This document shows, piece after piece, positions 9,086 through 62,840 of a DNA stretch of 64,000 bases. Location: the sequence record OM386653.1, one strand, 5' to 3'. The stretch is from Escherichia phage vB_EcoM_ESCO8. Both the position numbers and the translations under genes were made by a program. How positions within the stretch are numbered: position 1 is the first letter of the stretch; every line of letters begins with the position of its first letter. A model generated the notes under the pieces. That model did no database searches. It was given only the letters and a program-made list of their open reading frames with translations, and was not told the DNA's origin.

Positions 9086-9167
9086 TGGCCGGGGTGACAG
9101 GATTCGAACCTGCATACTCCAATTACTCGGTTAACGCCTGATTAGAAGTCAGGTGAGATACACCCCG
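9086..9167 (-). tRNA. Atypical tRNA-like gene (UCU-type anticodon hairpin, no canonical D arm)
   Basis: Perfect 7-bp acceptor and canonical T-arm TTCGAAT; internal hairpin CCTGA-CTTCTAA-TCAGG. Confidence 0.35.
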
Positions 9168-9178
9168 TTTTCATAACG

Positions 9179-9208
9179 ACTATAACAAAAAAACTAAGTA
9201 AATGTCAA
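9179..9208 (-). promoter_or_regulatory. Sigma70-like promoter candidate for tRNA array (TTGACA-N18-TATAGT)
   Basis: Read on reverse complement; -10 ends ~12 nt upstream of the first tRNA-like gene. Confidence 0.35.
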
Positions 9209-9224
9209 GACATTTTTTAGGTGT

Positions 9225-9310
9225 TGGTGCAAGTGGAGGGATTCGAACCCTCAATCATTTAAGCGTTGCGTTTTAAGCACAATGTGTATCACCAATTCCA
9301 CCACACTTGC
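9225..9310 (-). tRNA. tRNA-Leu(UAA), type II
   Basis: Perfect acceptor, T-loop TTCGAAT, anticodon loop CTTAAAA. Confidence 0.6.
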
Positions 9311-9341
9311 ATATAGGAGATGCATAGCACCTCCTTTTAAA

Positions 9342-9417
9342 TGGTGGTTCCCCAGGGTTACAATCCCTGCCCTCGACACTTATGAGGTGTGCGCTCTCGT
9401 CAGTGAGCTATGGAACC
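9342..9417 (-). tRNA. tRNA with CAU anticodon, non-canonical T-loop
   Basis: D-arm GCTC/GAGC, anticodon loop CTCATAA, T-loop ATTGTAA. Confidence 0.45.
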
Positions 9418-49740: not shown

Positions 49741-49769
49741 CATACAAGAAAACCCGCCGGAGCGGGTTT
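49741..49769 (-). terminator. Rho-independent terminator on minus strand (AACCCGC-CGGA-GCGGGTT)
   Basis: Stem-loop followed by T-run on minus strand. Confidence 0.6.
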
Positions 49770-52526: not shown

Positions 52527-52775
52527 TTACCATCGAATAACTATTCGAGTAAAGTTTTCATCGTAATGAGATGTTTCTGTATCAATAAAAGTTAAAAAAC
52601 CTTCAGCATCCAAGCTAACTTTTACGAAAGTTGGATAAAGCGTGTATATAGCAGCTTCTCTGTCTCCATCTTTAGCTGCTCTTTCAATATACGCGTAGAT
52701 GTTTTGTAAACTCTCCTTTGCTTTGTTAAGTTCTGCGTTTTCTGCCAGTTCTCTCATTTTATCTGCTACAGTCAT
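52527..52775 (-). CDS. Hypothetical protein
   Basis: ORF track. Confidence 0.45.
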   Translation of the reverse strand: MTVADKMRELAENAELNKAKESLQNIYAYIERAAKDGDREAAIYTLYPTFVKVSLDAEGFLTFIDTETSHYDENFTRIVIRW

Positions 52776-53044
52776 TTGTCAGTATCCTTTTCAATAAAGC
52801 CTGTGGTTTTACAAGGTACACATTCATACATTTGTCCAACATCTGCAACCACCCAACCCATTCCATTGCAATAAGGACAGATTGTTTTGTTCTCTTTAGC
52901 ATACACAGCCAGAAGTCTTTCTTCTAGCTTGTTGTAATCAGCAAGAAGAACATAGTCTCCTTCTGGATCTGGTACAATATCACATTGACCAGCAGCACCT
53001 TGGCTGTACACCTCTAAACCATATCGTGTAACCATTATCCCCAC
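52772..53044 (-). CDS. Small Cys-containing protein (CDIVxDPxG family)
   Basis: ORF track; paralog of 57550..57774. Confidence 0.45.
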   Translation of the reverse strand: MGIMVTRYGLEVYSQGAAGQCDIVPDPEGDYVLLADYNKLEERLLAVYAKENKTICPYCNGMGWVVADVGQMYECVPCKTTGFIEKDTDK

Positions 53045-53253
53045 TCCGCAATCAGTTTTGGATTTTCTGCACGAGAATAGAATGTTGTAATGTCACCGTA
53101 AGTGTACTCTTGTTCCGACAGTTTTACAAGAGAGATCATTTCACGATCTGGAGTACCAGGAATCCAGTCAAATACAGCAACGCCACGTGGTGTTACATAG
53201 AAACCAGATGTATTACCCGTAAACTTATCTTTTCCTTTATATAATTTGTACAC
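53035..53253 (-). CDS. Hypothetical protein
   Basis: ORF track. Confidence 0.45.
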   Translation of the reverse strand: MYKLYKGKDKFTGNTSGFYVTPRGVAVFDWIPGTPDREMISLVKLSEQEYTYGDITTFYSRAENPKLIAEWG

Positions 53254-53460
53254 TTTCTACTCCTCATAGATAGAATCTATTAAAAACCTGCTATCAATCG
53301 GTATAAACAGTTTTACTTTTCGTAAAAAACATGCTACCCTAATCTTATATACCGAGCGATAGCGAGGTAGAGAATATTCCATGTTATACATGGAAAGAGT
53401 ATATGTAATGTTACTAACTCTATAACTAACTATATACTCTTTATACCTTACTTACTACTC

Positions 53461-53724
53461 TTATTGAAGTTCAAAGATATCCCCATCTCCATCATATCCA
53501 TACTCTAACTCTCCTGTATCATATAATACAATAAAGTCTGTATCATCTTCAATAAAAGATTTAGCATAGTCTACTAACTCTTCATTATCTTCATACCCTT
53601 CCAGGTACTCAATACGACCATTGATACATTTAGCTGCAACAACTCCTGGGCCATTGCTTGGAGTCCACTCACTGTATACTCGCATACCTAATTCTTTAAT
53701 CATTGTTTGTCTCCTCATAATCAA
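53461..53724 (-). CDS. Hypothetical protein
   Basis: ORF track. Confidence 0.45.
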   Translation of the reverse strand: MIMRRQTMIKELGMRVYSEWTPSNGPGVVAAKCINGRIEYLEGYEDNEELVDYAKSFIEDDTDFIVLYDTGELEYGYDGDGDIFELQ

Positions 53725-53920
53725 TGTAGTTGTAACACTTATTCTTTAAGAAATCTTCTGCTTGTTTATTGTGTTTTAGAATGATGCACTTCTCTTTGTT
53801 CTGTTCTACATCATTATGTAGATTGTACAAGTTAGATGCACCATACAGAATACCAATTAACAAAAGCAAAGAGATTGCTGTTGATAACAAAAATTGTTGC
53901 AACTTGTTTACAGACTTCAT
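53696..53920 (-). CDS. Small membrane-anchored protein (KExCIxxKH family)
   Basis: ORF track; paralog of 57784..58032. Confidence 0.45.
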   Translation of the reverse strand: MKSVNKLQQFLLSTAISLLLLIGILYGASNLYNLHNDVEQNKEKCIILKHNKQAEDFLKNKCYNYIDYEETNND

Positions 53921-54143
53921 AAACCCTCCTTATCGTTAGTACACATTGATACTAACAAGAAGTTAAGATCGTGTCAACATCTTTGTGTTAATTTTATCCA
54001 CTGTTCACATTCTTCTTTTGTGTCGTACTCTACAGGCTTTCCTGTATCATTTCCACAACCATCTCCGAACGTAGCCCACCAGGAGAATAGAAAACAAGTT
54101 TCTCTTACTCTCCACTTATTGGCATAAGGTACAACATAATAAC

Positions 54144-54395
54144 TCATAAGATTGTGATCCTTAGTTCATTTTCTAAGGTGTGTCTCACACATTCTTTGAA
54201 ATTGTTATCAACATAAACCACACGTACCCCATGAGGTGTTTCTTTACATTCAAACACATTATATACAGTGTCAGATAAGACATGTTGTACGTTTACTTGT
54301 CCAACACCATCTTTAACCACAACCATTACTTTCAGTAAACTTGTATGGTTTTTAACTTCATCTTCTACGTATGCTACAACATCTTTGATATTCAT
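54144..54395 (-). CDS. Hypothetical protein
   Basis: ORF track. Confidence 0.45.
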   Translation of the reverse strand: MNIKDVVAYVEDEVKNHTSLLKVMVVVKDGVGQVNVQHVLSDTVYNVFECKETPHGVRVVYVDNNFKECVRHTLENELRITIL

Positions 54396-54691
54396 CGTTT
54401 CTCCTGTTTAAGTACGATATAAGATTGACGAGATTTCCATCGTCCCATCTTAACAAGGCAAATAACGCCTCTCTTTAACAGATATTTCATATCTTCGTCA
54501 TAAGCTGTTTGCAATTGCCACTTACTGTTAACAGGAAGAGAACCATGTACCCTTAAGTGAGCTAACAGATACTTTCTTCGCTCCTTCCCATAAGGCAGAT
54601 ATTGCCATTCTTTCTTTGATACAGGTTCGTGTACTTTACGATGCCAGTAAGTAAGGTGTCTTCTTTTATGTAAACCCCTATTCCTTACCAT
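54392..54691 (-). CDS. Hypothetical basic protein
   Basis: ORF track. Confidence 0.45.
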   Translation of the reverse strand: MVRNRGLHKRRHLTYWHRKVHEPVSKKEWQYLPYGKERRKYLLAHLRVHGSLPVNSKWQLQTAYDEDMKYLLKRGVICLVKMGRWKSRQSYIVLKQEKR

Positions 54692-54930
54692 TATACCTCT
54701 ACCTCCGTTACCCCAGGATCTCTAGTCCAGGTATAGTAGAGCATACCATCTTCTTTCAGTGCAATGCGATCACTTTCGTCTCGAAGATATAGGTCACATA
54801 CTACGCGCAGTTGCGGATCTGATCCGAGTAGTTCTGAAACAATAAGGTCATCACCGCTCATACGAGCAACAATCACTGCATATTGACCAGTATCTGCATC
54901 AAAAATTGGTTGTCCGATGTTTAATTGCAT
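54691..54930 (-). CDS. Hypothetical protein
   Basis: ORF track. Confidence 0.45.
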   Translation of the reverse strand: MQLNIGQPIFDADTGQYAVIVARMSGDDLIVSELLGSDPQLRVVCDLYLRDESDRIALKEDGMLYYTWTRDPGVTEVEV

Positions 54931-55115
54931 TGTGTTGTCTCCTTATTCAGTACATTGTTTTGTGCTGCGCGCCAGCACTCATAAAAACCTTGGGTTAATG
55001 GCATAGTGTAATTTCCAGAAGGATCTCTTTCGAGATCCCCATCTGCATAACAACCACTACCTAAAAACCATTTTTCAAAATCGGATAAATCATCCCAATC
55101 TACACTATTTTCCAT
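54921..55115 (-). CDS. Hypothetical protein
   Basis: ORF track. Confidence 0.4.
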   Translation of the reverse strand: MENSVDWDDLSDFEKWFLGSGCYADGDLERDPSGNYTMPLTQGFYECWRAAQNNVLNKETTQCN

Positions 55116-55116
55116 A

Positions 55117-55608
55117 TTATACTGTCTTATACCCTACAATAGCAACCTGATTCGTAGGCTTCCAACGACCAATAATCTCACCAGAAATCTCTGTGCTACC
55201 ATTTATGTATTGGTAATGGGTATCATCATGATTAACCCACGCCATAACGTCAAGAGTAGGGGTTTTGACGTGTACCAGTAGTGTAGCCCATTCTGGGGCT
55301 TCTTTAATATCTACAGAATCTTGCCAATCTTCTTCGATGTGCCAAGTAGGTTCACCATCAACATCTGTAACGAAGAAACGAGCTTTCATACGTTTAAAGA
55401 ACATTGGTGTATACCCATGATCGCACTCTGGGGTAAAATCATCCATCGTCTCGTCATAGGTGAAATATTGTCCATCTTTGTAATGAAAAGATGCGCAAAA
55501 TAGTTCATTACGAGCAGGAACATGCCATACAGCTACAAAACTACGACCATGTGGATAATGTTTAACCTCTTGCATAGTTTCCTCCTTATTTTTATTCAAA
55601 AGAATCAA
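55117..55608 (-). CDS. Hypothetical protein
   Basis: ORF track. Confidence 0.5.
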   Translation of the reverse strand: MILLNKNKEETMQEVKHYPHGRSFVAVWHVPARNELFCASFHYKDGQYFTYDETMDDFTPECDHGYTPMFFKRMKARFFVTDVDGEPTWHIEEDWQDSVDIKEAPEWATLLVHVKTPTLDVMAWVNHDDTHYQYINGSTEISGEIIGRWKPTNQVAIVGYKTV

Positions 55609-55936
55609 TTCGATTTTGTTCTATGTCAATTGCAGCATCTAAGATAAGTTTTAATGCTTCGAATTGCAAGTCTTCCTCTAAAGAGAAGACATATAAAACA
55701 ACGGATTCCAAGTAAGACAGCACTCCAAGACTAAGCGTTGCAATTTCTACTCCTGCATCGGAGAAGCCTGTTTGCAAAATTTCTTTGAAGAAACGCTGTT
55801 TATCAACAATAGCAGATAAAATAAGCGTTTTACGCTCGTCTGCTGATCGCACTGTGCAGTATATGTTGCTAAAAGAATCTAGCCACATTTTGATCATACC
55901 TTGTCGGTACATAAGGATTTCAATATCAGCTAACAT
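55592..55936 (-). CDS. Hypothetical protein (start at MLADIEI with AGGAGA RBS)
   Basis: ORF track 55592..56035 trimmed to remove overlap with upstream ORF. Confidence 0.45.
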   Translation of the reverse strand: MLADIEILMYRQGMIKMWLDSFSNIYCTVRSADERKTLILSAIVDKQRFFKEILQTGFSDAGVEIATLSLGVLSYLESVVLYVFSLEEDLQFEALKLILDAAIDIEQNRIDSFE

Positions 55937-55937
55937 A

Positions 55938-56105
55938 TTATTTCTCCTCTGGAGAAAGGTTTGCATTAACTTGATAGTAAAAATCAAAATCTTTGTGTTG
56001 ATCGCACCATTCTTGAGCGTCTTTAAATGACGCAAATTGCATAGTGAATGTTGCCATCCACGTGTTCATACTTTTATTGAACTTGTCGATAAAAAATGTT
56101 TGCAT
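55938..56105 (-). CDS. Hypothetical protein
   Basis: ORF track 55938..56126 trimmed to ATG after GGAGG RBS. Confidence 0.4.
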   Translation of the reverse strand: MQTFFIDKFNKSMNTWMATFTMQFASFKDAQEWCDQHKDFDFYYQVNANLSPEEK

Positions 56106-56338
56106 TATTCCTCCCATTTTATCCAAAGGCAGTATTCTGGAACATAAACCTCCTTCCCTTTGTTATTTACAAAGGTGTACTCCACAAATTCTGCTTTATA
56201 TGTTTTGTTATATTCCTGTGCTGCTGGCACAGGACATTTTGTAATGCGCGTTTCAGTCCAACGGCGGTGTATAACCGCCTTGTTCTTTGGATCAAACGGA
56301 TGTATAAAGTGTGTTTTACTCATGCGCCATTTCCACAA
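56105..56338 (-). CDS. Hypothetical protein
   Basis: ORF track. Confidence 0.4.
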   Translation of the reverse strand: MWKWRMSKTHFIHPFDPKNKAVIHRRWTETRITKCPVPAAQEYNKTYKAEFVEYTFVNNKGKEVYVPEYCLWIKWEE

Positions 56339-56720
56339 GATTTTTAATCATAGTTTCTCGACAGAGATTCCACATGTCCGAAGCAACCATAGAGGCATAT
56401 TCATCGGGGTTGGATTCTGGTAAAATCTCTTTAACTGCTTCTGGTGTCGGGTTGCACATAGCAGGTAGTGCTTTAAGTGCATCTTCAATAGAGAGCTTCT
56501 TACCTTCACTGTAAATAACTTCGTAAGCATAGTCATTTACATCTTCTGGAATATCTTGATCCAGGTAACGCACAGTAGAGTTATGCATTTTGTTCATAGC
56601 TTCACTAACACCAGCGCCACAAAGCTGTGCAACTTCTTTAGAGATACAGTCACAAATAACAACTTCATAAGGTTGTCCACCATAATACTGTGCATTATAT
56701 TTGATTTTAACAGACCACAT
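56316..56720 (-). CDS. Hypothetical protein
   Basis: ORF track. Confidence 0.45.
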   Translation of the reverse strand: MWSVKIKYNAQYYGGQPYEVVICDCISKEVAQLCGAGVSEAMNKMHNSTVRYLDQDIPEDVNDYAYEVIYSEGKKLSIEDALKALPAMCNPTPEAVKEILPESNPDEYASMVASDMWNLCRETMIKNLVEMAHE

Positions 56721-56786
56721 CTTACTCTCCTTATTTAACGTGTTTTAGCAATTCAATGCGATGCCCTTCAAACATAATCTCTTTCA

Positions 56787-57371
56787 TTACACATCCTCCA
56801 TTTGGAACATCTTCTTGTGGTTAGAATAGATCTGTTTGAAAATCTTGTCAAGGCGTTCATATGATTCTTTATGCTCTTGTTTCCATCCGTGATTTCGGAT
56901 TTTATCTGCTAGGTCATACGCCTCGCATAAAACTTTGGCAAAGTTGGTATTATCTATAGCACAAGCCTCAAAACCTTGAACTAAACCCTCTACATCATAC
57001 CACGTATAGTCAGAGTCACTAGGAGGCTTTCCTGCATCGGCTAAACGTTGCCTCACCCATTCGATACGTTTTTCATTCAAATGGCACTTACCTTCTCTAC
57101 ACTCTTGTTCTAATTCTTCTTTAGATTCATTGAATGGGTGAAGGACAGGTAGCTCTGCTTTTTGCAATTGCTCCAGATATTCTCCTACAATACGCATAGC
57201 TTCACTGTGTGTACACTTTCTACCTGTGTGCCAGTAACGGAAGATACTTTCTGTTAAACAGATGTTTTTACTAAACATCGCATTGTCTTTAACATTCACT
57301 CTATTAGCCCAGTCTAAATAATATACATAAAACTGCAATAATTCATAACTGCTTGGTATAATTTTACTCAT
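56787..57371 (-). CDS. Paralog-family protein A (LLQFY / LHPFN / CHxN / WVxxR motifs)
   Basis: ORF track; shares motifs with 57995..58363, 60287..60661, 60802..61218. Confidence 0.5.
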   Translation of the reverse strand: MSKIIPSSYELLQFYVYYLDWANRVNVKDNAMFSKNICLTESIFRYWHTGRKCTHSEAMRIVGEYLEQLQKAELPVLHPFNESKEELEQECREGKCHLNEKRIEWVRQRLADAGKPPSDSDYTWYDVEGLVQGFEACAIDNTNFAKVLCEAYDLADKIRNHGWKQEHKESYERLDKIFKQIYSNHKKMFQMEDV

Positions 57372-57549
57372 AGCCTCTCCTTAATTGTGAAAAATGTTAT
57401 CAATCAATATGACTAGTAATACAAGGATAGAAGGGAGTAGGAACAGAAATCTTAACATTATGTGATGCGTGTGAGAAGCGGCTTTAGCGCCAGCCGCCAG
57501 TAAGCCTACTAATCCTACAATAAAGAGCAGTTGTTCAGGGACACCCATA

Positions 57550-57774
57550 TTATGGAACACTTGGATACTCCGTAAGTTCGGCTAACAATTGGATATGTGG
57601 ACACGTGAATTGTTGTCCTGGATAGCGTGAGCTAATATCATCCAGCAAAGCAATCACAGCATTGTGCAATGCTTCGTAATCTTCATAATACACCATCTCT
57701 CCATTAGGATCTTCAACAATATCACAGTGACAAGCGTGAGCAGTACACGCATCCCATTCCAGACGTTTTACCAT
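57550..57774 (-). CDS. Small Cys-containing protein (CDIVxDPxG family)
   Basis: ORF track; paralog of 52772..53044. Confidence 0.45.
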   Translation of the reverse strand: MVKRLEWDACTAHACHCDIVEDPNGEMVYYEDYEALHNAVIALLDDISSRYPGQQFTCPHIQLLAELTEYPSVP

Positions 57775-57783
57775 AAACCCTCC

Positions 57784-58032
57784 TTACTCATACATTTGAT
57801 AAGATACATAACGATTGCAATCAAGTGCGAGAAACTTTTCAGCATTTCTTTGATGCTTGAACACAATACACTGTTCTTTTTTAGCTGCACTTTCACGAGC
57901 TTCTCTTGCCATATACTCACCTAAACGAACGATACCAGAGAATAACACGTATGCAAGAATAAGACAAACAGTGATTGCACAGAAAGTTTTAAACTTAACC
58001 ATTGTATTCCTCCATATCACGAATACGATCAA
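57784..58032 (-). CDS. Small membrane-anchored protein (KExCIxxKH family)
   Basis: ORF track; paralog of 53696..53920. Confidence 0.45.
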   Translation of the reverse strand: MIVFVIWRNTMVKFKTFCAITVCLILAYVLFSGIVRLGEYMAREARESAAKKEQCIVFKHQRNAEKFLALDCNRYVSYQMYE

Positions 58033-58363
58033 TCACCCATTGTACACGTTCTTTATTAAGGTGTGCAATGCCTAGCTCTGTTTCCGTAAAGTAGTGCGAG
58101 AAATCCGTATTAAACGGATGTAAATGGTTCAAACCCGCTTTCTTAAATTGTTCCTTCATTTCCTCTCGTACAGAGGATTGGAGCTTTGATACATTCTCAA
58201 CATCTTTTATCCAAGCAATATTGTATAAGAAGTCTACAAGACACGTGCAAAGACCATAATGCTTTTTGCTAAAGTTTGTATCTTCTTGTTCTAACCACCA
58301 TTCATAAAATTGTAGCAAATAGGGGCTGCTTTTCATGTTACACACTTTATTATTTTCTTGCAT
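57995..58363 (-). CDS. Paralog-family protein B
   Basis: ORF track; motifs LLQFYEWW, GLCTCL, LHPFN, RVQWVIDRI. Confidence 0.5.
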   Translation of the reverse strand: MQENNKVCNMKSSPYLLQFYEWWLEQEDTNFSKKHYGLCTCLVDFLYNIAWIKDVENVSKLQSSVREEMKEQFKKAGLNHLHPFNTDFSHYFTETELGIAHLNKERVQWVIDRIRDMEEYNG

Positions 58364-58372
58364 GGTTTCTCC

Positions 58373-58672
58373 TTAATGCCAATCTACGATCACTGAATCT
58401 ACAAAACCCTCTTTGGTGTTTAAAGCATACACCTTACTAAGCCCACGCTCTCGTAGTGTTTCCATAGCAAGATCAATCAAATCAACTTGTCGTTTCTTTG
58501 CTTGTTCATTTTTTGGATAGTCATCCAAACCGAAAACAGACGGTTTAAATGCTTTGGAGTATTTGCCAGTCTTAGCCTGATCATAACAGTCCTGAATAAT
58601 TTCCTCAATAGGAAACCATAAACCTTCTCCACTTTGCTTTGCAATACAACGCAGTTTTTCTGTAACAGTCAT
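58373..58672 (-). CDS. Hypothetical protein
   Basis: ORF track. Confidence 0.45.
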   Translation of the reverse strand: MTVTEKLRCIAKQSGEGLWFPIEEIIQDCYDQAKTGKYSKAFKPSVFGLDDYPKNEQAKKRQVDLIDLAMETLRERGLSKVYALNTKEGFVDSVIVDWH

Positions 58673-60286: not shown

Positions 60287-60661
60287 CTATTCAATGCAAG
60301 CATTATTTGCATCTTCGATTCTGTCTTTCACCCATTGAAGACGTAACGTGTTGGTATGACACGCCAAGTCTATACACTCTGAAAGGTAATCCATGCAATC
60401 TGCATTGAACGGAAGATTGTAGTCCAGTCCTGCACATGTAAATTGTTTCCTCATTTCGTATTTCAAACTATCCAACAAACGATCACGCCATCTTTTATCT
60501 TCTTCTCTAGTTACCTCACCAACAAAATCATCTACATAATCTACCAGACAACCACATAAGCCACTCGTTGTGCGATTCATTGCAGGATGGTTGGCAATCC
60601 ATGCTTTATAGAATCGTATTAAAGCTGCACTACTCAACGGAATATTACTTTTCATGATCAC
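60287..60661 (-). CDS. Paralog-family protein C
   Basis: ORF track; motifs LIRFYKAW, GLCGCL, LPFN, RLQWVKDRI. Confidence 0.5.
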   Translation of the reverse strand: MIMKSNIPLSSAALIRFYKAWIANHPAMNRTTSGLCGCLVDYVDDFVGEVTREEDKRWRDRLLDSLKYEMRKQFTCAGLDYNLPFNADCMDYLSECIDLACHTNTLRLQWVKDRIEDANNACIE

Positions 60662-60827
60662 CTCCTAACTTAAGTATTCTACCTAGCAGATAAAAGAATG
60701 CCTGTATTGCACTAAGGAACATACACAAAATAATAAGAAGTCCGAAACCGACAAAACCTGCTTTTATCATTAACCAAACTATTCCAACCAATTCCCACAT
60801 TCTACACACCCTTACATGAATCGGCAA
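60645..60827 (-). CDS. Small membrane protein
   Basis: ORF track; hydrophobic; start uncertain. Confidence 0.35.
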   Translation of the reverse strand: MPIHVRVCRMWELVGIVWLMIKAGFVGFGLLIILCMFLSAIQAFFYLLGRILKLGGDHEK

Positions 60828-61218
60828 TACGATCTTTCACCCACTGCAATCTCCCTGGGTTCGTATGGCAAGAATGTTTCTTACCTTCATCTTCATAACA
60901 CAGAAGATCATCATTAAAGGGCAGGAAGGAGGATAGCCCAGCACACGTGAATTGCAATTTCATCTCTTCCAGCGTTTTGCTACGAACCATTTTGAAATGT
61001 TCTATATCTTCTTGCGTAGGCTTTTTCTTTGACATAGCGGATGCCAGATAATCCATAAGGCAAATACACAAACCAACATTCTCACGATGCATTGAGGAAT
61101 GATCTTCCATCCATGCTTTGTAGAATTCTAACAGCAGTGGACTGCTAAGAGGAACACACATATCAGACTCCTTTATAAGATTACGTTTCATGCCACACAT
61201 CATATAGCATCTTTTCAT
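60802..61218 (-). CDS. Paralog-family protein D
   Basis: ORF track; motifs LLEFYKAW, GLCICL, LPFN, RLQWVKDRI. Confidence 0.5.
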   Translation of the reverse strand: MKRCYMMCGMKRNLIKESDMCVPLSSPLLLEFYKAWMEDHSSMHRENVGLCICLMDYLASAMSKKKPTQEDIEHFKMVRSKTLEEMKLQFTCAGLSSFLPFNDDLLCYEDEGKKHSCHTNPGRLQWVKDRIADSCKGV

Positions 61219-62840
61219 CTGTTACAAGAACAGCAACATAGGAACATCATTAATGAAGGATTTAGTATAGGATTTCCCTATCAATTATTCTATATATACC
61301 TATTATTTTTAACACACCCCTTTGTACATAATATAGACAAATAAATATCTATGCCACAAAAATTTTCCGGTATACCCGATTTATTTCGACACACCCCCTT
61401 TTCATAAACGTAAAGTCAATAATATCAATAACTTGCCGCAAAATACTGCTCGCTTGCGAGAGGTGCTTAACGCGATTTTCAGCGCCCCCCGATTTCTGCC
61501 GACCGTCCCCCTCAAATATCAATGAGAATTATTATCATTTGCATTATCATTCAATGACTTATAAGACTTTTGATTATTTTCTGAGCAAGAAAGGCACTAC
61601 TCACAACAAAACAGATAAATTCTAAGTAAATCAATGGCTTGGCATTTCTAAACATCTATATACACCTTGCCAAATGAAATGATCTGGCGTGAAATAGTGC
61701 CACCCGTGGAAGATAGCTGATAATGATTCTCATTTGCATACTTTCTGTACTATAAAACCGACTAAAAATCAAGATAATTCTATTTTATTGCGCTTTTAAG
61801 AAAGTAGGCTCAACAAATGGTAAGTTATATTGCAACAAATAGGGATAGTTATGCCCGACAAATAACAACAATAGTATGAAAAATCATCTATTCGGATGTA
61901 AATAATTTTGCGCAATAGCACTGTGTTCCCATAGCGCCCCCTGGAGGGTGGCGCATTATGATCATCAATGTCATTATTCACCATGTTTATTATTGCATAG
62001 CTTATATTATAGCCAATGTTCTAAACATTAGCTAATAATAACGCACCGCAACAATGTAAGGGAATACAATATACCATGTATATTGTTGCGCTTGCAATTG
62101 TTGCAAGCTACATAAGCACAGATAATAACTATCGGTGATGGTTATTATGTGGGGTGTGTAGTTGCGTTATTATTAGCCGCCTATGTGTCCGGCATAGGCT
62201 GCTAATGATACGCTTGCGAATTATATTTCTTGTTATAGTTATTGTATGGAATGATTACTGTATGAAATGATTATTTAGGTAATAGATAGGAAGGTAAAGA
62301 TTAGATCATAAATAGATAGGATATTAATTATTTAGTAATGTTACTAACAATTTAATAGTTACTTTGTGCAACAATTCGATAGATTATAGTTATAGTTTTA
62401 AAGGTTAGATAGATTATATTTAGCTTAGTAATGATTTATATTGGTTATTGTTGTTTAATATAAGGTTATCAATGAGATAGTAACAGTAAGTTATAAATAA
62501 AGGTGAGATAATTAGTTTTAATTTAGTTAGATAACTTATTATTTTATAGGTTAGATGGTCATAAGTTAAGAATGATTATCATTATTGCATTATGCAGTTT
62601 ATTGCATAAATAATCAGCTATAAATAAGAATGATTATCATTTAAGAGGAAAGACAAGAAAAAGGCTGTTTTTTCCCGATAGTTACATTGAGAAATTAAAA
62701 ATAAGCGGTCTAAAACACGCTGTAAGCGCCTTATGATCTTCATGGTATGGTTGTTCATCTGCTCCTTGATTAGCTCGATACCGCGATCTATTCACTTTTT
62801 TCGGTGAACGTTTTTGATAGGTAAAAGCTATCATATTTAT

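Follow-up and report, generated by a model that had tools for sequence, protein, structure and literature searches.

Large lytic phages routinely carry many small early genes that belong to old paralog families. Among the small early products of lytic phages, some membrane or periplasmic proteins act on the cell envelope, such as T4 Imm and Sp, T5 Llp and HK97 gp15. Here we address two families of small proteins encoded on the minus strand of Escherichia phage vB_EcoM_ESCO8 (sequence record OM386653.1), within the 64,000-nucleotide stretch that was analyzed (henceforth, the window). Each family has two members there, here termed C1 and C2, and D1 and D2, and a previous reading made from the letters of the DNA only (hereafter, the sequence-only reading) had described both as paralog pairs. 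Protein alignments show that this description holds for D1 and D2, which are full-length paralogs derived from an old gene duplication, while C1 and C2 are not whole-gene duplicates and have in common only an N-terminal head of about 40 residues. Profile searches show, in turn, that the head is a widespread N-terminal module, joined by recombination to many different tails.

Among described systems, the D proteins may find functional analogs in T4 Imm and Sp, T5 Llp and HK97 gp15, which are likewise tiny, bear an N-terminal signal or anchor and lie among non-essential genes; no sequence or profile similarity between the D proteins and any of these was detected. For the C proteins, the likeness lies in architecture. 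As in polymorphic toxins, a conserved N-terminal part and a junction motif are followed by variable or unrelated C-terminal parts, but the proteins of the head family are small (50-280 residues), the loop inside the head varies too and nothing points to toxicity, to secretion or to partners conferring immunity. The family also recalls the mosaic accessory nin/ea regions of lambdoid phages, in that some of its members sit in the nin region of prophages. The tail of C1, for its part, recalls the central cysteine-rich domain of DnaJ (PF00684) and anti-TRAP (PF15777), its putative zinc-binding motifs having the type and spacing of a DnaJ-type zinc center; C1 departs from DnaJ in having no J domain and in lacking the first glycine of the second repeat. 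The scores of C1 fall well below the curated cut-offs of DnaJ_CXXCXGXG (E = 0.016, 15.9 against 32.7 bits) and Anti-TRAP (E = 0.027, 14.9 against 32), as well as that of the NCBIfam model RtpA (NF058604; E = 0.0034, 17.5 against 65).

The PHROGs database already clusters C1, C2, D1 and D2, under the label 'unknown function'. PHROG families 23083, 22955 and 29624 hold, respectively, C2, C1 and head proteins of Kagunavirus, and give mutual cross-hits exactly over the head; PHROGs thus differs from the grouping proposed here in that it splits the head family by tail, with all the resulting families of unknown function. The family phrog_3592 ('Lar-like restriction alleviation protein') matches the N-terminus of C2, over the head only and weakly (E = 7.7e-4), and the Pfam model Lar_restr_allev (PF14354) matches neither C1 nor C2. 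The matches of PF14354 to other head-bearing proteins are weak and, in the one case for which the position is shown, lie in the tail.

Identification and significance of the two families

Over the 8 kb surrounding the four open reading frames (ORFs), the DNA is 97-98.5% identical to genomes of Justusliebigvirus, the phi92-like E. coli myophages of the Stephanstirmvirinae, with genomes of about 147 kb. The four counterparts in phi92 are all labeled hypothetical in the phi92 record. All four ORFs pointed out by the sequence-only reading are present on the minus strand, albeit with two adjusted starts. C1 probably begins at ATG 53035 instead of the listed GTG 53044, which would not be used, and D2 probably at ATG 58002, in an ORF that is open back to TTG 58032, since both are preceded by Shine-Dalgarno sites and agree with the gene calls of phi92 and with the beginning of the PHROG profiles; in the long ORF of D2, phrog_15662 aligns from residue 11. 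The genes and gene parts are listed below, together with the ratio of nonsynonymous to synonymous polymorphism (pN/pS), computed for 34 genes of the surrounding block from the window and seven other Justusliebigvirus genomes (eight in total).

52772..53035, minus strand: C1 (Phi92_gp025), 87 residues from ATG 53035, with a ribosome-binding site; matches phrog_22955 at 8e-63 from residue 4; pN/pS 0.08
52898..53035, minus strand: head module of C1, residues 1-46, MVTRYGLEVYSQGAAGQCDIVPDPEGDYVLLADYNKLEERLLAVYA; matches the Kagunavirus-like head profile from Met1 (E = 7e-8) and C2 by BLASTP
52772..52897, minus strand: predicted zinc-finger tail of C1 (CPYCNGMG...CVPCKTTG), shared with head-less 65-residue proteins of Phapecoctavirus
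57550..57774, minus strand: C2 (Phi92_gp008), 74 residues, with a strong ribosome-binding site; matches phrog_23083 at 7e-56; pN/pS 0.04
53696..53920, minus strand: D1 (Phi92_gp022), 74 residues, with a ribosome-binding site, a predicted N-terminal signal or anchor helix, Cys45 and Cys62; phrog_23204; pN/pS 0.36
57784..58002, minus strand: D2 (Phi92_gp007), 72 residues, with the ribosome-binding site GGAGG before ATG 58002 and the same architecture as D1 (Cys45, Cys62); phrog_15662; pN/pS 0.39

Every gene of the block presents a pN/pS below 0.4, with C2 and C1 among the most constrained and D1 and D2 giving the two highest values, and all four are under purifying selection. These ratios (0.04-0.39) and the Shine-Dalgarno sites ahead of the starts indicate that the four ORFs are real genes.

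Both pairwise similarities are far above chance. BLASTP aligns C1 and C2 with 13/32 identities (E = 8e-7) and D1 and D2 with 20/71 (E = 7e-10). The Smith-Waterman score of the C pair is 67, against 24.4±4.5 for shuffled sequences, and that of the D pair is 84, against 23.1±4.2; in neither case did any of 5000 shuffles reach the observed score, and a Gumbel estimate for the C pair gives p~3e-6. Hence, the significance of the alignments, which the sequence-only reading had put forward as its own check, is borne out for the two pairs. When all 666 pairs of block proteins were ranked, the C and D pairs came just below those of a four-member family (A family, see below), and the next pair scored 46. 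Cross-hits between PHROG families are also reciprocal, C1 with the family of C2 and D1 with that of D2. Furthermore, a hidden Markov model (HMM) built from Kagunavirus-type heads only retrieved C2 (E = 5e-8) and C1 (E = 7e-8) from 1010 six-frame segments of the window, the next match having an E-value of 2.9, and an HMM of D2-type and Phapecoctavirus sequences that left D1 out retrieved D1 at E = 9e-12, with no other match in the six-frame window.

At the DNA level, the matched parts are only 52-56% identical, with second codon positions conserved best. Over the 96 matched nucleotides of the C pair (56% identity), 23/32 second positions agree, against 15/32 third positions, and a 38-nt core inside the shared C motif, with 79% identity, is the sole repeat that connects the loci at this level. 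As judged from these comparisons, both relationships are old and lie at the protein level.

The N-terminal head of the C proteins

Counted from the ATG starts, the likeness between C1 and C2 runs from Met1 (MVTRY in C1, MVKRL in C2) to about residue 45 and then ends, the tails being unrelated. The similarity that the sequence-only reading had seen between the two ORFs (52772-53044 and 57550-57774) is real. The overall pattern of the head is MVxRY, a variable loop and G-x-[FWY]-V-x-Y-E-D-Y-x-x-L-E. In a slightly relaxed form, it comprises M-[VI]-x-R-[YL] at the initiator methionine, found in both proteins, and, after a loop of 10-25 residues, the core G-x-[FWYM]-V-x-[YL]-[EA]-D-Y-x-x-L, found in C2 as GEMVYYEDYEAL and in C1 as GDYVLLADYNKL, the latter with two substitutions in YE. 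Positions G25, V28, D32, Y33 and L36 are invariant or nearly so. In C2, the head spans residues 1 to about 40, with CxxHxCxC in its loop, and is followed by a predicted helix-loop-helix tail, AVIALLDDISSRYPGQQFTCPHIQLLAEL.

Searches of Pfam and NCBIfam with the four proteins, their neighbors and 144 head-bearing representatives brought out no match above threshold, and no model of either database covers the head. A word-indexed search with C2 alone had returned four proteins and an earlier head profile 114 small proteins. A 37-column head profile, run at E<=1e-3 against 1.84 billion representative proteins, found 871 clusters (50% identity). In nearly all of the 150 clusters listed, the match begins at residues 1-7, in proteins of 43-280 residues. 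The tails are highly diverse; coiled coils and zinc ribbons occur among them, and Ead_Ea22 and Lar are matched once each. A few proteins (P0155-P0157, P0194, P0222 and P0245) have two heads with coiled-coil segments in between, as would result from a fusion of tandem head genes.

Head-bearing genes occur in four phage contexts, namely tandem genes of Kagunavirus, a 68-kb myophage, Phapecoctavirus and the nin region of lambdoid prophages of Salmonella. In Kagunavirus, two adjacent genes open with MVQRY...G-x-F-V-x-YEDYAKLEA and then diverge. The match to C2 extends over the full length of 67-residue Kagunavirus proteins and is limited to C2 residues 1-36 in the protein of the 68-kb myophage, while the C2 tail is common to 148-residue proteins of Phapecoctavirus and to Kagunavirus gp021. 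In one Salmonella prophage (L016, 8001-8591), a head-bearing protein of 196 residues is encoded between a DnaB-type replication gene and ninB, the slot where lambda carries ren. The source names of the head-bearing prophage proteins are all 'hypothetical protein'.

Reassortment of loops and tails was examined in 112 head-bearing proteins, mostly from Kagunavirus-like contigs of about 44 kb. These proteins comprise 19 types of loop and 15 types of tail. All four combinations are present in 45 two-by-two tables, and loops and tails therefore reassort around the conserved junction G-x-V-x-YEDY-x-x-LE.

The tail of C1 contains CPYCNGMG, a perfect CxxCxGxG, and, 16 residues on, CVPCKTTG, which reads CxxCxxxG; the phi92 annotation of gp025 mentions a 'predicted DnaJ-like zinc finger domain'. 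This tail matches phrog_13972 at 3e-9 and, by tblastn, Phapecoctavirus at 60-69% identity. The syntenic gene of Phapecoctavirus (gp126 of ukendt), which follows two genes ending in ...LIAEW as it does here, encodes 65 residues with the same zinc finger, CPYCGGAGYVMADVGQIYECNPCKTTGYIE, and an N-terminus unrelated to the head. Since the zinc-finger tail thus has a head-less syntenic ortholog, C1 is a sub-gene mosaic of head and predicted zinc finger.

A further rearrangement is recorded in a metagenomic Logan contig (L018, from SRR3713844), which joins window positions 58624-57672 to 53595-52983 through a 16-nt overlap inside the YED codons. The outcome (protein P0003) is a fusion of the C2 head with the tail of gp023, the downstream neighbor of D1, and the deletion of about 4.08 kb, with some 15 genes including D1. 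This contig represents either a natural variant or a chimeric molecule.

The four genes were already known as ORFs and clustered in PHROGs, so that the similarities as first described are ordinary. What is new is that the head can be recognized as a single, widespread N-terminal module, around which loops and tails combine. This is a modest point of annotation, but the 37-column profile offers a handle to group hundreds of orphan phage ORFs, and the module itself a testable idea on how small accessory proteins diversify.

The D family

The N-terminal helix and the shared motif that the sequence-only reading had reported for 53696-53920 and 57784-58032 are both confirmed. The core can be written K-E-x-C-I-x-L-K-H ... 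A-E-x-F-L ... C-x-x-Y-x-x-Y. Its two cysteines are invariant or nearly so and lie 16 residues apart, at positions 45 and 62 in D1 and D2 alike. In an alignment of 26 sequences, the glutamate, C45, K49, F57 and L58 are invariant, and K42, I46, H50, A54, C62 and Y68 nearly so.

By tblastn, D1 is found only in Justusliebigvirus (55 records). D2 is found in Justusliebigvirus as well as in Phapecoctavirus and certain Klebsiella phages, where the core is about 69% identical. The large protein search placed the D family on contigs of 140-150 kb only, and these searches show the family to be confined to Stephanstirmvirinae. Over the 29-residue core, D1 shares 13/29 residues with D2 and likewise 13/29 with the D protein of Phapecoctavirus, while D2 and the latter share 20/29. 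Being equidistant from the other two, D1 must either have split from D2 at least as early as the two genera separated or have evolved fast.

The best hydrophobic 19-mer has a mean Kyte-Doolittle value of 2.55 in D2 and 2.22 in D1. The helix of D1 is flanked by charges of +2 on the N-terminal side and -2 on the C-terminal side, and the phi92 record gives gp022 a SignalP score of 0.985. In both D proteins, the N-terminal flank carries +2 and the C-terminal flank is neutral to negative, the latter less clearly in D2, where it includes three K/R. The predicted topology suggested by these features is an anchor with the N-terminus inside and the C-terminus outside, or else a cleaved signal peptide.

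The constant upstream neighbor of D is a gene of the A family that overlaps the D start, as in A2-D2 here and in gp096-gp097 of the Phapecoctavirus ukendt, and this arrangement suggests that A and D form a gene pair.

Two versions of the D2 C-terminus exist across Justusliebigvirus, ending in ...ALDCNRYVSYQMYE (72 residues, the form present here) or in ...EQDCGRYVNYN (69 residues), the site of variation being 57784-57830. The second ending also occurs on P0151, a protein with a Phapecoctavirus-type N-terminus, which hints at an exchange of the 3' end of D2. A promoter-like site on the minus strand (53949-53977; TTGACA, a 17-nt spacer, TG and TAGTAT) lies within the gap of 53 nt immediately ahead of D1.

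Origin of the two families

The sequence-only reading had attributed the interleaved pairs to repeated segmental duplication or recombination. Common ancestry and recombination find support in the results above, and repeated segmental duplication of the block does not. We consider it likely that an old gene duplication, in the case of D, and module exchange by recombination, in the case of C, account for the identity and evolutionary history of both families, and that they do so better than a single segmental duplication.

The alternative that fares best, though in our view unlikely, is that D1 or the head of C1 was acquired horizontally from another phage and did not arise by duplication within the lineage. 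In its favor, the shuffling of the widespread head from phage to phage is demonstrable, and D2 and the Phapecoctavirus D protein group together with D1 as their outgroup. Nonetheless, no homolog of D was found outside contigs of Stephanstirmvirinae size, and the acquisition of the C1 head from elsewhere is compatible with duplication and module exchange, as well as inseparable from exchange within the genome.

A single segmental duplication of a two-gene D-C unit, followed by divergence and by the insertion of unrelated genes between D1 and C1, is the version closest to the sequence-only reading, and we regard it as decidedly unlikely. In the direction of transcription, the order is indeed D2-C2 ... 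D1-(three unrelated genes)-C1, on the same strand and collinear; a gap of only 9 nt separates D2 from C2, and insertions and deletions of whole small genes are common in the block. With only two families, however, a matching order is expected by chance in 50% of cases, and the adjacency of D2 and C2 is not fixed, as EmilieFrey and VEcB have an extra gene between them. All-versus-all BLASTP brings out no other gene pair linking both neighborhoods beyond D and the C head, and apart from the 38-nt core inside the C motif there is no DNA repeat. Moreover, the likeness of the C proteins stops at about residue 45, where unrelated tails begin, the C1 tail has a head-less syntenic ortholog in the sister genus, it is the upstream A gene, not C, that is conserved as the partner of D, and D1 is no closer to D2 than to the Phapecoctavirus D protein (13/29 each).

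It is very improbable that the shared C motif is an embedded DNA or RNA element, such as a regulatory site or a recombination signal, instead of reflecting protein function. The 79% DNA identity of the 38-nt core and the use of the motif as crossover point in chimeras would fit such an element. Over 96 nt, nevertheless, identity drops to 56% and is concentrated at second codon positions (23/32, against 15/32 at third positions), the amino acids are kept across 871 divergent clusters, always in frame and at the N-terminus, and the pN/pS of the two genes is 0.04-0.08. Finally, even though the proteins are short and a membrane helix makes up part of the D alignment, effects of chance or composition can be dismissed almost entirely in view of the shuffle controls, the reciprocal PHROG matches, the leave-out HMMs, the location of the invariant D residues in the core outside the helix and the score of 26, against 25 for shuffles, of the two other small membrane ORFs of the block.

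Possible functions

Taken together, the functional proposals for the two families are tentative and may well prove wrong. D1 and D2 would be bitopic or secreted mini-proteins, whose positively charged N-terminus and hydrophobic helix would enter the inner membrane with the N-terminus inside, leaving a C-terminal core of some 30 residues in the periplasm. The two invariant cysteines, 16 residues apart, could then form a disulfide stapling a small helical hairpin. If made early, such proteins would most plausibly act on the envelope, for instance in superinfection exclusion or by modulating a host factor of the membrane or periplasm. As the fastest-evolving genes of the block, and with products predicted to be exported, D1 and D2 are reasonable candidates for envelope-directed functions.

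For the head, the AlphaFold2 (AF2) model of C2 has a mean predicted local distance difference test score (pLDDT) of 73.6, with short strands at residues 5-7, 19-21 and 27-28 (pLDDT 55-59) and helices at 30-50, beginning at the EDY motif, and at 59-67 (pLDDT 80-91). The head would probably fold as a beta-hairpin that caps the next helix, often a coiled coil, and it could serve as a common oligomerization or docking unit, with the variable loop and the tail setting target specificity. The conserved junction between hairpin and helix may double as the crossover point for the exchange of cassettes. The zinc finger of C1 is predicted to be a protein-binding unit of DnaJ/anti-TRAP type.

A bolder proposal, which we hold to be doubtful, sees the head as the mark of a large family of accessory proteins of phages, so far without a name, in which recombination generates diversity. 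Its hairpin-helix unit would dock or oligomerize on one conserved hub, and cassettes swapped at YEDY-x-x-LE would change the targets, for example in host takeover or counter-defense. The family would then be a phage analog of polymorphic effectors, with C1 and C2 as two members fixed in phi92-like phages.

Several points weigh against this account of the two families. The AF2 head is of low confidence (pLDDT 55-59), Foldseek, run with the C2 model on BFVD and PDB, brought up its own Phapecoctavirus homolog (E = 5.8e-3) and noise only, and no solved structure was matched by sequence or profile at better than E = 0.74. Two genera cannot tell whether the head of C1 was gained or lost. The topology of D is drawn from charge bias and an old SignalP call, and the orientation of D2 is less clear, given the three K/R in its C-terminal flank. 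The D2 model shows one long helix (residues 2-50) and a short second one, and a modeled single helix says little. The high pN/pS of D1 and D2 may reflect just relaxed constraint on a membrane helix. The early or accessory character of the gene block, and early expression likewise, is deduced from genome position only. Lastly, literature searches turned up no work dealing with these genes or with the mosaic head family. At present, the practical value of the results lies in annotation and in the choice of targets for experiments.

Genomic context

The four genes belong to a series of about 37 small genes that extends along the minus strand between 61.2 and 49.8 kb. The left terminal (direct) repeat of phi92 maps to window positions 61810-61468, and the strongest terminator-like hairpin of the region (49750-49769, minus strand; eight pairs, five of them GC, followed by a T run) lies directly past the last gene of the block. 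Since repeat and hairpin bound the gene run, the block adjoins the left end of the genome. An overall enrichment is seen for terminator-like sites (18, compared with 6.4±2.8 for shuffles), and promoter-like sites show no enrichment over shuffles (52, against 48±6.6).

Besides the C and D genes, the block contains the four-member A family, on the minus strand at 56787-57371, 57995-58363, 60287-60661 and 60802-61218 (phrog_2510 and phrog_27059), which shares the motif GLC.CL ... LPFN ... RLQWVKDRI with pairwise E-values from 6e-7 down to 7e-32. The two neighbors that bear on the preceding sections are the following.

57995..58363, minus strand: A2 (Phi92_gp006), A-family member by all-versus-all BLASTP, phrog_2510; its end is overlapped by the start of D2
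53461..53703, minus strand: gp023 homolog, downstream neighbor of D1 and partner in the putatively natural C2::gp023 deletion chimera

Three further candidate relationships within the block were rejected. The gp023 homolog has no match to the head HMM; had it been a third protein with a head, D1-gp023 would have mirrored D2-C2. The hydrophobic ORFs 57381-57560 and 60645-60827, considered as another paralog pair, score 26 against 25±4.7 for shuffles, and the 'putative transcription factor' genes 52527-52775 and 58373-58672 give a BLASTP E-value of 0.48 and fall in separate PHROG families.

Polymorphism by insertion or deletion of whole genes occurs within Justusliebigvirus. About 910 bp of the window (60338-61247, comprising part of A3, a small hydrophobic ORF and A4) are absent from phi92, a 687-nt 'Eaa-like' gene (phi92 gp011) is missing from the window at 56720-56787, and the additional gene of EmilieFrey and VEcB between D2 and C2 (57774/57784) measures 249 nt. 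Elsewhere in the window, 16 tRNA genes, including three for tRNA-Met, are clustered on the minus strand at 6630-9417, a kind of cluster that is typical of this phage subfamily.

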